This document shows, one piece after another, positions 36,016-39,210 of a stretch of DNA of 64,000 nucleotides. The position numbers and the translations under genes are program-made. A model generated the notes under the pieces. The model was not told where the DNA came from. It worked only from the letters and a program-made list of their open reading frames with translations, and made no database searches. Each line of letters opens with the position of its first letter. Within the stretch, counting starts at the first letter, position 1. This DNA is from Gemmatimonadota bacterium (GTDB lineage: Bacteria > Gemmatimonadota > Gemmatimonadetes > Gemmatimonadales > Gemmatimonadaceae), in contig CANHJV010000001.1 in NCBI GenBank assembly GCA_947461225.1, positions 16,962-80,961 of the forward strand, given 5' to 3'.

Positions 36016-36409
36016 CCAGACCGATCGGCGCTCCTTCACGTAGCGTCCGATCAGGTCGAATCGGCTGCGGGCAGCGGGTCACCCTGCCAACCGTCCGCCC
36101 GCAGCCTAATGGACACGGGCCGCGAGCTGATCGCCCGCGGCCGACGCCGACCTGGTCGTGCTCGATGCCGCTACCGCGTCCGTGACGTGCTGGCGCGTGG
36201 AGGTTGGCACATTCCGGGCGGAATGACCGTTCGCCGTGGCACCTTCGAGACAGCGTAACGCCGTTCTCCTGACGCGCCGGAATCGGGGTGTGAAATTCGG
36301 CGCAAGATGATGTTTGTGTAAGGAAACAAGTATTGACTTAATCGCCCTTTGGCTGGAACTTGGGTCTCCGGCTGTTGTTCGTGACAGCAGGCAACTGTTT
36401 CAAGACATA

Positions 36410-36621
36410 GGCATTTGGTCAACGACCCCGACACTGGGGTCGGCGCTAAGAGGGAACCCGGTGCGATTCCGGGGCGGCCCCGCCGCTGTGAGGGATGACG
36501 AAGGAGCTGCACGCCACTGGGTACTCATGTCTGGGTACACGGGAAGGCCGCTCCAGAGGATGAATCCCGAGCCAGAAGACCTACCAGATTGCCGGAGTCC
36601 GCGCGCACCCTCGAGGGAGGG
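36410..36621 (+). ncRNA. Cobalamin (AdoCbl) riboswitch
   Basis: Conserved blocks AAGAGGGAA-CCCGGTGCGATTCCGGG-GCGGCCCCGCCGCTGTGA, GCCACTG...GGGAAGG, B12 box GAGCCAGAAGACCTACC. ggcatttggt pairs with accagattgcc; P13-like hairpin ccct-cgaggg-aggg. Confidence 0.93.
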
Positions 36622-36672
36622 CACGCCGGGGATTGCTGCGTGCCATTCGCTTGAGTGGCGCCAGCTCCGCTG

Positions 36673-36708
36673 GGCTCCTTGCTGCGCATCGCAAGGAGCC
36701 TGTTTTGT
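36673..36708 (+). terminator. Terminator-like hairpin in the riboswitch expression platform
   Basis: ggctccttgc-tgcgcatc-gcaaggagcc followed by tgttttgt. Confidence 0.6.
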
Positions 36709-36789
36709 CCCCCGGCGTCCGCCGAGGGACGAAAGCGCAGGTCCTCGGGGGTGTGCATTTAATCGCTGGTTCACCCGAAGGAGGCTCAG

Positions 36790-39210
36790 TTGGCCACGTC
36801 CGTCGCCCCCCGCAGTTCCGAGATCCGAGCCAGCTACGACGCCGTCGGGATGAAGGCAGTCACCGAGGTCGTCAACCGTGACGGCCGGTCATCCGCGTGG
36901 GATCCGGAGCGTATCACTCGTGCGATCGCGCTCGCGTTTTACGCGTCGCGTCACGACGATGCGCCCAATCCGCTGCACGATGACGCCGCCCACCGCTTCG
37001 GCCTCGGCTTCACCGACTTTGCCGACGTCTGCGCGATCACGCAGCTGGTGGTGAACACCGTCGAGCGTCGGGCCCAGGATCATGTCCCCACGGTCGAAGA
37101 GATCCAGGACATCGTCGAAATGATGATCGCCGCCCGCGGTCATTGGGACATCGCCAAGCGCTACGTGCTGTATCGCGCCGCCCGCGCCCAGCATCGCATC
37201 AACGTGCACGCCGAGAACGGCTTGCAGGACTACATCTTCCTCTCGCGCTACTCGCGCTACCGGGAAGATCTCGGTCGCCGCGAAACGCCGTCGGAAGCGT
37301 TCACACGCGTGATGGACATGCACCGCGACCACTTCGCCGACCGGGTCGACCTTCCGGTCGCCGGTTTCGGTGGACGCACCATGCGGGCCCTCATGGCGGA
37401 AACGGAGGCTGCGCTGCAGCGTCGCGCGATCCTGCCCTCCATGCGCTCCCTGCAGTTCGGCGGCCGGGCCATCGAAGCGAACAACGCGCGCATGTTCAAC
37501 TGCGCCTTCACGCACATGGACCGGCTCGACGCGTTCAAGGAATCCTTCTTCCTGCTCATGTCGGGCACGGGCGTCGGCTTCAGCGTGCAGAAGCAGCACG
37601 TGGCACAGCTCCCCACCTTCCCGCTCCGGGCGGCGGAGAACGAGCTGCCCGTGGTGCACCACCTGGTGCCCGATACGCTCGAAGGGTGGGCGGATGCCCT
37701 CGACGCCCTGATCCGCTCGTACCTCGACGGCACCAAGGTCGAGTTCAACTTCAGCGCCGTTCGCTCGCGTGGCCAGCCGTTGCGCACCTCTGGGGGGCGC
37801 GCGCCGGGTCACTTGCCGCTCAAGAAGGCGCTGTTGGCGGCCGAACGGATGCTCGAGCAGGTGCCGGGCCGCGCGCTCCGTCCGATCGAAGTGTACGACA
37901 TCATGATGCACGTGGCGGTCGCCGTGCTCTCCGGCGGCATCCGTCGCTCGGCCACCATCTGCCTGTTCTCGTCGGACGACGACGAAATGGCGGCGGCCAA
38001 GACGGGCAACTGGTTCGAGACCAACCCGCAGCGCGGTAAGTCGAACAACTCCGCCGTGCTCGTGCGCGAGACGGTGCAGCCGTCCGACTTCTCGAAGCTG
38101 TTCGAGTTCCAGAAGGAGTTCGGTGAACCCGGCTTCTACTTCGTGGACGACGCCGAGTATGGCGCCAATCCGTGCGTGGAAATCGGCCTCGCGCCGTACA
38201 TGATCGTGGACGAAGCGGCGCAGGCGAAGCTCGCGAAGTACGGCCGTCCCGATGTCGCGATCGGCTCGCGCGTGTCGGGCTGGCAGATGTGCAACCTGAC
38301 CACGATCAACGCCGGCGCCTGCGACAGCGAAGAGTCGTTCCTGGCGTGCTGCCGCGCGGCGGCGTTGCTGGGCACGATGCAGGCGGCCTACACCAACATT
38401 CCGTACCTCGGTGCCGCCACGCGTGTGATCAACGAGCGTGAGTCGCTGCTGGGTGTCTCCATCTGCGGCATTCTCGATCGTCCGTCGCTGCTGCTCAATC
38501 CGTCGGTGCTGGAGCGTGGCGCCAAGGAATGCCTCGATACCAACGCGGCGATCGCCGAACATCTTGGCATCGAGCCGGCCGCGCGTATCACGTGCGTGAA
38601 GCCGGAAGGCACCGCCAGCCTCGTGCTGGGCGCGGGCTCGGGCATCCATCCGCACCATGCGCGTCACTACTTCCGTCGCGTGCAGGCCGCGCGCACGGAG
38701 CCGTTGTACCAGTGGTTCAAGCTGCACAATCCGCACATGACCGAAACGTCGGTGTGGGATCCCGAGACGACTGACGTGATCACCTTCCCGGTGAGCGCCG
38801 AGCCCGACGCGATCCTGCGCGAAGATGTGGGCGCCGTGCAGTTCCTCGAGTACGTGCGTCTGGTGCAGGAGCACTGGGTCCGCGCCGGTCGTCGTCACGA
38901 GCAGTACAACCCGGGCCTGCACCACAACGTCTCCAACACCGTCACCGTGAAGGACGACGAGTGGGAAGCCGTGCAGCAGTTCATCTGGGACAATAAGGAA
39001 TACTTCGCCGGCATCTCGCTGCTGCGCGAAACGGGTGACAAGATTTACGCGCAGGCGCCGCGCGAGGAAGTCACGACCGAGTCCGACATGATCCGCTGGA
39101 ACGCGCTGTCGTATCGCGAGGTCGACTACACCATGCTGCTGGAAGGCGTGGACATGACCACGCTCGCCGACACGGTGGCGTGTGCGGGTGGGGCGTGCGA
39201 GATCATTTAG
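36790..39210 (+). CDS. nrdJ: Ribonucleotide reductase, class II monomeric RTPR-like, with N-terminal ATP-cone
   Basis: AAGGAGG RBS then TTG start; ATP-cone (VVNRDG...VEEIQDIVE...AKRYVLYR); PSMRSLQFGG, NCAF, GTGVGFS, GGIRRSA, NPCVE, CNL, TCVKPEGT, YAQAPREE, C-terminal CAGGAC. No YY dyad and no adjacent nrdB. Confidence 0.85.
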   Translation: MATSVAPRSSEIRASYDAVGMKAVTEVVNRDGRSSAWDPERITRAIALAFYASRHDDAPNPLHDDAAHRFGLGFTDFADVCAITQLVVNTVERRAQDHVPTVEEIQDIVEMMIAARGHWDIAKRYVLYRAARAQHRINVHAENGLQDYIFLSRYSRYREDLGRRETPSEAFTRVMDMHRDHFADRVDLPVAGFGGRTMRALMAETEAALQRRAILPSMRSLQFGGRAIEANNARMFNCAFTHMDRLDAFKESFFLLMSGTGVGFSVQKQHVAQLPTFPLRAAENELPVVHHLVPDTLEGWADALDALIRSYLDGTKVEFNFSAVRSRGQPLRTSGGRAPGHLPLKKALLAAERMLEQVPGRALRPIEVYDIMMHVAVAVLSGGIRRSATICLFSSDDDEMAAAKTGNWFETNPQRGKSNNSAVLVRETVQPSDFSKLFEFQKEFGEPGFYFVDDAEYGANPCVEIGLAPYMIVDEAAQAKLAKYGRPDVAIGSRVSGWQMCNLTTINAGACDSEESFLACCRAAALLGTMQAAYTNIPYLGAATRVINERESLLGVSICGILDRPSLLLNPSVLERGAKECLDTNAAIAEHLGIEPAARITCVKPEGTASLVLGAGSGIHPHHARHYFRRVQAARTEPLYQWFKLHNPHMTETSVWDPETTDVITFPVSAEPDAILREDVGAVQFLEYVRLVQEHWVRAGRRHEQYNPGLHHNVSNTVTVKDDEWEAVQQFIWDNKEYFAGISLLRETGDKIYAQAPREEVTTESDMIRWNALSYREVDYTMLLEGVDMTTLADTVACAGGACEII

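Follow-up and report, generated by a model that had tools for sequence, protein, structure and literature searches.

A cobalamin riboswitch ahead of a class II-type ribonucleotide reductase gene in Gemmatimonas

Cobalamin riboswitches on ribonucleotide reductase (RNR) genes are a textbook case of control, in which the cofactor represses a cofactor-independent substitute. Borovok et al. reportedly found in 2006 that nrdABS of Streptomyces coelicolor is under a cobalamin riboswitch. In Propionibacterium acnes, such riboswitches lie on both nrdAB and nrdDG; the canonical picture places them on these genes and not on nrdJ, and those described to date act by repression (PMC3848588). Here, we analyze a 64,000-nucleotide stretch of DNA (hereafter, the window; contig CANHJV010000001.1 of assembly GCA_947461225.1, positions 16,962 to 80,961) from a Gemmatimonas metagenome-assembled genome (MAG), in which a cobalamin riboswitch precedes a gene for a stand-alone RNR. 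The locus resembles those of S. coelicolor and P. acnes in that an apparently adenosylcobalamin (AdoCbl)-type RF00174 element stands in an RNR leader, in an organism that also has a riboswitch-free canonical NrdJ; three Gemmatimonas genomes with nrdAB share this arrangement. It differs in that the controlled gene is itself of class II, the B12 type, rather than of class I or III, and both RNRs here belong to a cofactor-dependent class. A literature search, whose incomplete coverage leaves absence unproven, returned no class II RNR reported to be under a cobalamin riboswitch.

Both the riboswitch class and the enzyme family are thus known, while the regulatory pairing is unexpected and the platform between them has an unusual two-layer build. 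The reading that we favor, with a probability of about one half, is that the leader is a working AdoCbl riboswitch of the OFF type, and that the accessory RNR under its control is induced at low B12 while probably remaining B12-dependent.

The riboswitch, the enzyme and their linkage

A scan of the whole window against Rfam returned RF00174 as the sole match, over model positions 1-189 of 189 (109.8 bits, E 1.3e-26; gathering score 31.5), in agreement with the canonical cobalamin riboswitch that had been proposed from the sequence. P1 of the aptamer is formed by 36410-36419 and 36583-36593, and L5 is CCCCG (36478-36482). The B12 box GAGCCAGAAGACC (36569-36581) and the GCCACUG core fit the RF00174 consensus and are invariant in 34 related leaders (alignment A1), from which the leader anatomy below was also read. 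The P6 extension gives the aptamer a class I, AdoCbl-type appearance. Orthologous leaders scored 113-117 bits with the same model.

The open reading frame runs from TTG 36790 to a stop at 39210 and encodes 806 amino acids (aa). The predicted ribosome-binding site and TTG start held up: an in-frame stop lies directly upstream of the start in four orthologues (L018, L019, L012 and L013), and the Shine-Dalgarno (SD) sequence is kept 5-9 nt ahead of the start among orthologues. By far the best catalytic-domain model was TIGR02505, the AdoCbl-dependent RTPR (223.4 bits, E 4.6e-66). At 340 bits, the equivalog cut-off lies well above this score and places the protein outside the equivalogs of the Lactobacillus-type enzyme. 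Models of class I, dimeric class II and class III enzymes matched only the ATP-cone or short stretches; the grouping with class I NrdA that would have spoken against the original prediction was thus not found, and no distant nrdB partner tracks the enzyme. In a sequence search of solved structures, the catalytic part matched only the Lactobacillus leichmannii RTPR (1L1L, E 1.6e-25). An AlphaFold2 model (pLDDT 85.3) likewise retrieved 1L1L as the top Foldseek hit (E 1.1e-30, TM 0.61/0.68), and the runners-up, class I enzymes and Thermotoga NrdJ, had E values of 4e-17 or worse and TM of at most 0.54. A match to the RNR-II insertion domain PF21995 at residues 289-353, the candidate for the long loop-1 insertion by which a monomer mimics the dimer interface, remained below threshold (22.9 bits, cut-off 27).

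The hallmarks named in the original prediction, TCVKPEGT, GISLL...YAQAP and the CAGGAC tail, are all present, and no YY dyad of the class I type occurs anywhere in the 806 residues. The finger loop NPCVE (460-464, with N460, C462 and E464), C238, C501 in CNL and C798/C803 in CAGGAC are invariant across 25 diverse relatives. The protein shares with the L. leichmannii enzyme the N-x-C-x-E finger loop, the redox cysteines and a C-terminal C-x4-C tail, but it is only about 20% identical to it and carries an additional N-terminal ATP-cone. Judged from these profile and fold matches, the enzyme would most simply be filed as an ATP-cone-bearing monomeric class II RNR.

The family of the catalytic part is large, comprising 1,801 clusters at 50% identity (E 1e-30 or better), with many members 45-50% identical to the window enzyme. 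A radiation of monomeric class II enzymes (NrdJm/RTPR) has been described from virioplankton (PMC10547690, PMC6459318). The window enzyme is 45-50% identical to virioplankton and phage NrdJm over the catalytic part, and some of these also have an ATP-cone. Unlike the phage copies, which have neither room for nor trace of a riboswitch, the Gemmatimonas copy is chromosomal, accessory and provided with a dedicated leader. Many family members are 1000-1800 aa long with two to five matched stretches, as expected of intein-bearing phage RNRs. ATP-cone RTPR-like genes 45-50% identical to the window enzyme (L125-L131, P0126-P0271) lie in phage-like contexts with RuvC, GP88, T4-type RNA ligase, UDG and LAGLIDADG; these distant relatives were considered as independent riboswitch cases and rejected, being phage-borne and without a riboswitch.

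We compared the riboswitch-linked enzymes with the rest of the family. Among 59 riboswitch-free cluster representatives, 255 positions were at least 97% conserved, and 251 of these were kept in 61 representatives of the riboswitch clade; the four that differ are conservative (D to N, L to M, I to L and L to V). Since the family-invariant residues are kept, no changed cofactor is suggested, and at the sequence level the riboswitch-linked enzymes appear neither as a divergent subtype nor as functionally shifted, also when set against relatives that are the only RNR found in their genomes.

The gene is flanked by S9 and M14 peptidase genes, with no nrdB or nrdG neighbor at the locus, and no partner gene conserved beside the enzyme was found across lineages. 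In the whole MAG (88.7% complete), there was no match to PF00268 or PF13597, which fits the stand-alone RNR originally described. RNA contigs of a close relative track the window to about 39211, just beyond the stop, and then turn into unrelated sequence; the region directly after the gene therefore differs between close relatives.

To follow the pairing of riboswitch and gene, 78 loci encoding relatives were taken from species-representative genomes, and their leaders were checked by nhmmer and Rfam. The aptamer and a homologous leader of about 190 nt were present in every orthologue of at least 76% identity with enough upstream DNA, in about 45 Gemmatimonas-type genomes. The leader was absent from all copies of 68% identity or less, including copies of about 60% identity in other Gemmatimonadaceae and those of Verrucomicrobiota and Pontiellaceae. 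Of 61 genus genomes searched, 30 had the platform core, each as a single copy at the RNR locus; a search of the 61 for the same platform before other genes found none. In three of four freshwater metatranscriptome studies, from lake and river, RNA contigs of a relative about 93% identical bridged leader and coding sequence (36324-39026, 36385-37345 and 36434-38193), and read-through transcripts therefore exist in nature. Only this bridging was used, as word shares and contig depths in such data are no guide to expression rank or to termination. The riboswitch is truly tied to the RTPR-like gene, and since it is conserved with a stand-alone enzyme of class II type, the regulatory paradox is real.

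The sole exception in the clade is a Gemmatimonadales MAG (L015:2560-3010), whose orthologue is 84% identical. Its riboswitch is decayed: the 5' half of the aptamer survives, with a degenerate B12 box, and a deletion running from the P1 3' strand to the end of V2 (Table 1) has removed block 1, c, V1 and the terminator, while block 2, the SD sequence and an intact gene remain. Either control has been lost naturally in this lineage, or the assembly is at fault.

The leader between aptamer and start codon

The order of parts in the platform is conserved: strand a, H13a with block 1, strand c, V1, strand e, the terminator, V2, block 2 and the SD sequence (Table 1).

Table 1. Features of the riboswitch-RNR locus, in window positions
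Feature	Position	Strand	Basis or proposed role
Cobalamin riboswitch aptamer	36399..36602	+	RF00174, 109.8 bits, full model
Strand a (GGAGUCC)	36594..36600	+	abuts P1 3' strand; candidate anti-terminator 5' strand
Hairpin H13a (GCG-CA-CCCUC-GAGG-GAGGG-CA-CGC)	36603..36626	+	invariant block in A1; 5' part is block 1
Block 1	36603-36616	+	5' strand of long-range helix A; alignment A1
Strand c (CGGGG), L13-like	36627..36631	+	contiguous with H13a; putative ligand-dependent kissing partner of L5
Variable hairpin V1	36635..36664	+	A1 and per-sequence folds: clade-specific sequence, pairing kept
Strand e (CUCCG; CCCCG in another clade)	36665..36669	+	L5 look-alike; can pair with c, extending V1
Intrinsic terminator T	36671..36708	+	stem 36671-36702; core arms 36673-36682 and 36691-36700; T-rich tail
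Variable hairpin region V2	36709..36742	+	sequence unconserved in A1
Block 2 (CCUCGGGGGUGUGC)	36743..36756	+	3' strand of helix A; alternatively anti-SD strand
Shine-Dalgarno GAAGGAGG	36777..36784	+	read from sequence
ATP-cone + RTPR-like (monomeric class II-type) RNR gene, 806 aa	36790..39210	+	open reading frame, profile matches, fold
ATP-cone domain, residues 26-133	36865..37188	+	PF03477, 56.2 bits (cut-off 25.8)

The terminator-like hairpin originally noticed at 36673-36708 was recovered by a terminator scan as a 12-pair stem followed by the T-rich tail TTTTGT, with a folding energy of -21.3 kcal/mol (z -3.8). Its core is covarying, with changes on both sides in six of ten pairs and 95.6% of alignment cells paired; the U-tract is weak in one clade (UUUCGUGUU).

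Strand a is complementary to the terminator 5' arm GGGCUCC (36672-36678), and the resulting pairing, helix X, belongs to the minimum free energy (MFE) structure of 24 of the 34 leaders when transcripts end before the terminator 3' arm. In the predicted MFE structure, it closes a tight three-way junction with H13a and with V1 extended by c:e. The last 2-3 nt of the P1 3' strand lengthen helix X in 16 of the 34, and in one clade (L016) the anti-terminator takes up the terminal GCC of P1. In helix X, 92% of cells are paired, with almost no covariation. Strand e, part of the same junction, has 87% of its cells paired. Among helix X, H13a and c:e, in which the share of paired cells ranges over 87-92%, the sole compensated pair is the foot pair of H13a, which changes from G-C to A-U in five sequences.

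Kissing-loop cobalamin riboswitches include Escherichia coli btuB, env8 and the riboswitch of Thermoanaerobacter tengcongensis. The present leader resembles them in having the L5 sequence CCCCG and a complementary G-rich strand, c, on the 3' side of the aptamer. Both are invariant and 100% complementary in all 34 leaders, hence covariation is uninformative for this pair.

A second layer lies closer to the start codon. Helix A is a 14-bp pairing of blocks 1 and 2. In the raw alignment it is paired in 89% of cells; its changes fall on one side, and a change of A to C in block 1 is compensated by a G inserted in block 2. It is present in the full-length MFE structure of every sequence printed and is worth about 14-23 kcal/mol. 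When outside helix A, block 2 is the predicted partner of the SD sequence: the mean probability of this pairing was 0.70, against 0.34 with shuffled block 2, and was higher in 30 of 34 leaders, and SD accessibility rose from 0.18 to 0.34 on blocking block 2.

Three further pairings were considered and dropped. A long-range helix of 36623-31 with 36710-18 sits in the variable V2 and is unconserved, the conserved one being block 1/block 2; a local P13 hairpin around c (GGCACGC/GCGUGCC) is present in the window and unconserved in other clades; and a pairing of the terminator 5' arm with the aptamer segment GAAGGAGC shows no covariation. No sigma-70-like promoter was found in 36200-36900, a range that takes in the segment between terminator and start (36710-36790) from which independent transcription had been envisaged, although that consensus may not fit this phylum.

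The same genome carries a btuF-type leader that shares the CCCUCGAGGG block, a strand 3' of P1 matching its own terminator 5' arm, and a strong terminator. There, the G-run that can kiss L5 is itself the anti-terminator strand, in a plain OFF design. In the RNR leader, unlike the btuF-type one, kissing and anti-termination would fall to two strands, c and a, and there are a decoy, e, and a second layer made of block 1, block 2 and the SD sequence. The leaders of the Gemmatimonas nrdAB genes also differ, being about 130 nt long and without a terminator, as compared with the platform of about 190 nt here with its terminator and SD-masking chain.

The 5' flank of P1, AAGACAUAGG (36402-36411), is near-invariant in the 34 leaders despite its position outside the aptamer helices. 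RNA contigs from two studies start close to it, at 36385 and 36398. Its GAC could pair with the GUC of strand a, with no covariation, and the flank may be a transcription start region or an unrecognised pairing.

Reductase repertoire and the direction of the switch

The canonical NrdJ of the source MAG (875 aa, NF006417 1133 bits, TSCPD domain) is encoded on a different contig, where no riboswitch lies within reach, and no match to NrdB or NrdD was found in the MAG (88.7% complete). We surveyed the RNRs of 41 genomes of the genus. Canonical NrdJ was present in 37 of them; the RTPR-like gene occurred in 18, of which 17 had canonical NrdJ too. True class I nrdAB occurred in three genomes, each 99% complete and each without the RTPR-like gene, and in all three RF00174 (124-131 bits) stood directly upstream of nrdA. 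The riboswitch-controlled second RNR in the genus is thus either nrdAB or the RTPR-like enzyme, never both. From this distribution, we concluded that in these apparent B12 importers the canonical, dimeric NrdJ is the core enzyme and that the riboswitch governs an optional second RNR.

No riboswitch accompanied the RTPR-like gene where its product was the only RNR found (G101, G102 and G110, and G103 apart from a weak R2-like match), nor where it occurred with class I or class III enzymes. An nrdAB riboswitch in Verrucomicrobiota or Pontiellaceae that also carry the RTPR-like enzyme would have implied that this enzyme is their B12-dependent partner; none was found, and this line of evidence was dropped. 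B12 auxotrophy of Chloracidobacterium was likewise set aside as evidence on the cofactor, since these species also have NrdAB and depend on MetH.

On the reading that we favor, strand c (CGGGG) would be held by the decoy e at low B12, strand a would pair with the terminator 5' arm as helix X, and the polymerase would read through; in the full-length mRNA, helix A would keep block 2 off the SD sequence and the enzyme would be made. At high B12, the loaded aptamer would capture c through an L5-c kissing helix stacked on H13a, P1 would be locked, helix X would be disfavored, and the terminator would form. In transcripts that escape, block 1 would be locked in H13a and block 2 would mask the SD sequence. 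The enzyme would serve as a low-B12 reserve, providing extra reductase capacity or binding AdoCbl better than NrdJ, with the RTPR-like enzyme taking the role of the riboswitch-controlled class I nrdAB of sister species. Possible benefits at low B12 might include a higher affinity, more apo-enzyme to catch scarce AdoCbl, the use of nucleoside triphosphate substrates, and ATP-cone control, which canonical NrdJ lacks.

The layout is of the OFF type in two respects: the terminator lies about 80 nt past the aptamer with no overlap, and the aptamer is adjoined by strand a, the anti-terminator, and block 1, the anti-anti-SD strand. A further point for OFF is competition between the extended anti-terminator and the last nucleotides of P1. 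If a kiss at c locks block 1, and so masks the SD sequence, the outcome is coherent only when transcription is repressed as well. In the modelled structures, strand e would have a role only in the OFF model. The original prediction had left the choice between a rare ON switch and a low-B12 back-up; comparative evidence leans to the back-up, and computation did not decide between the two.

Several observations weigh against the OFF reading. When the bound state was mimicked by blocking c, the predicted probability of the anti-terminator failed to fall and often rose. Before the terminator 5' arm is made, the ensemble pairs the last two Gs of c and the near-invariant AU with strand a, a pairing that would give ON logic, and helix X alone leaves a 4-nt toehold to the terminator 3' arm. 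The sequences behind helix X, H13a, c:e and the kissing pair are invariant, and hardly any covariation backs these pairings. We found no documented precedent for B12 repressing a B12-requiring enzyme; we infer the use of AdoCbl by this enzyme from its family membership, and the proposed benefit, whether affinity or capacity, is pure inference. Secondary-structure modelling did not discriminate OFF from ON: the thermodynamic mimic of the bound state and full-leader modelling of SD accessibility were tried as arbiters and proved noisy. Calibration on known logic was also abandoned, because the platform of the Gemmatimonas nrdAB riboswitch is short, SD-masking in look and without a terminator, and because the kissing G-run of the btuF-type switch is itself the anti-terminator strand.

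A less likely explanation is a natural cis-acting ON switch, which would restrict synthesis of a B12-requiring enzyme to times when the cofactor is at hand. In the absence of B12, the GG at the 3' end of c and the AU after it would pair with a, extending H13a and hiding a and block 1, so that the terminator forms and block 2 masks the SD sequence; AdoCbl-driven capture of c by L5 would free a, and helix X would then block the terminator. This makes direct biochemical sense for an AdoCbl enzyme. In the ensemble before the terminator 5' arm, c:a (two of the five nucleotides of c) had a mean of 0.42-0.46 as against 0.09 for c:e, blocking c raised the anti-terminator probability in many leaders (e.g., from 0.40 to 0.97, from 0.07 to 1.00 and from 0.14 to 0.83), and the AU after GGGG is near-invariant though outside the CGGGG:CCCCG kiss. 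However, a:c comprises just 4-5 bp including a G-U, fails by sequence in three leaders (L037, L081 and L058), and should be quickly displaced because the terminator 5' arm has a free toehold on a; the conserved e would counteract it, freeing a in the unbound state. A kiss stacked on H13a should also lock block 1, repressing translation while transcription is activated, which is incoherent, and typical ON switches have a terminator that overlaps the aptamer, which is not the case here. On the physiological side, the other RNR of the cell requires B12 too, so withholding this enzyme at low B12 saves little; the counterpart in sister species, the riboswitch-controlled nrdAB, is of the repressed type; and in the Verrucomicrobiota that combine class I nrdAB with the enzyme, the setting in which an ON switch should pay most, neither gene has a riboswitch.

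An OFF switch on a true B12-independent back-up, which would replace NrdJ without B12 by generating its thiyl radical without AdoCbl or by using another corrinoid, appears improbable. It would fully restore the textbook logic and would suit the mutual exclusion with riboswitch-controlled nrdAB in the genus. The TIGR02505 score of 223 against 340 bits and the identity of about 20% to the one solved RTPR also mean that homology is no proof of the cofactor. As the riboswitch clade shows no functional shift (251/255), however, B12 independence would have to hold for the whole 1,801-cluster family, which the literature treats as B12-dependent (PMC10547690, PMC6459318). No conserved neighbor gene could supply a radical, the weak R2-like frames described below do not track the enzyme, no NrdG-type activase context was seen, and neither the active-site Cys/Asn/Glu nor the redox cysteines depart from the usual class I/II set. 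The other radical source suggested in the original prediction found no support, in view of the unshifted clade and the lack of a conserved partner gene. That the enzyme needs no AdoCbl at all, with an ATP-cone NrdJm-like clade starting the thiyl radical by an undescribed route, seems quite improbable in its own right.

Least probable of all is a decoupled riboswitch with little B12 effect, whether the gene has its own promoter past the terminator or the leader is a decaying relic: the roughly 80 nt of leader after the terminator, the decayed riboswitch before an intact gene in the L015 lineage and a promoter consensus not established for the phylum would allow for it, but purifying selection clearly acts on aptamer, platform blocks and terminator across about 45 genomes, the changes seen in the terminator preserve its structure, the promoter scan of 36200-36900 gave no sigma-70-like match, RNA contigs join aptamer and coding sequence in three studies, and the block 1/block 2 pairing spans the terminator and ties the downstream leader to the riboswitch.

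If the switch is of the OFF type, there would be B12-dependent RNR isozymes specialised for cofactor scarcity through higher affinity or extra capacity. Such isozymes would help to explain why two class II reductases are retained in many bacteria, and would be relevant to the way in which freshwater B12 auxotrophs manage on a very low B12 supply. An ON switch would be a rare natural cis-acting cobalamin activator, and a B12-independent enzyme would mean new RNR chemistry, a new kind of reductase hidden inside class II. The system is well suited to testing, with a single gene, a compact leader and mutational targets in c, e, a, block 1 and block 2. Natural controls exist in the nrdAB genes behind a riboswitch in sister species, the riboswitch-free copies and the decayed riboswitch of L015, and cultured Gemmatimonas relatives are available.

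Host genome and minor observations

The source MAG comprises 3.7 Mb in 264 contigs and is 88.7% complete; at this completeness, CbiC, CbiB/CobD, CobS and MetE were not found in it. It has a PduO-type adenosyltransferase and five proteins with a B12-binding domain, one of them MetH-sized, and a second cobalamin riboswitch ahead of btuF/btuC-like genes. Subject to the incompleteness of the genome, the host looks like a B12 auxotroph that imports and adenosylates corrinoids and is B12-dependent in any case.

Near-identical cobalamin riboswitches (63-65 bits) lie at two contig ends of the MAG, L004:131-363 (G000 C251) and L003:18-250 on the minus strand (G000 C45). One is followed by the btuF/btuC-like genes, the first product having a lipoprotein-like signal peptide, and the other runs off its contig; the pair may stem from a duplication of the uptake locus or from a single locus broken up in assembly.

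Weak PF00268 matches (50-72 bits) in frames of 460-670 aa were noted in G072, G074, G077, G082, G085, G088 and G090, and in further genomes, G091, G093, G094, G095, G097 and G100 (example loci L085 and L086). These proteins look like R2-like or ligand-binding-oxidase-type ferritin proteins and not RNR beta subunits. As candidates for a hidden partner they were rejected, with both genes in eight genomes, the R2-like one only in five and the RTPR-like one only in ten.

In six genus genomes, the barrel match of the canonical NrdJ is stretched over about 2.5 kb in stop-free frames of 1220-1310 aa (G097:C35:885-3419, G090:C87:10449-12983, G095:C115:14455-16983, G074:C48:886-3414, G094:C790:981-3509 and G096:C316:1211-3748), which suggests an intein or other large insertion in the core NrdJ of those six lineages.

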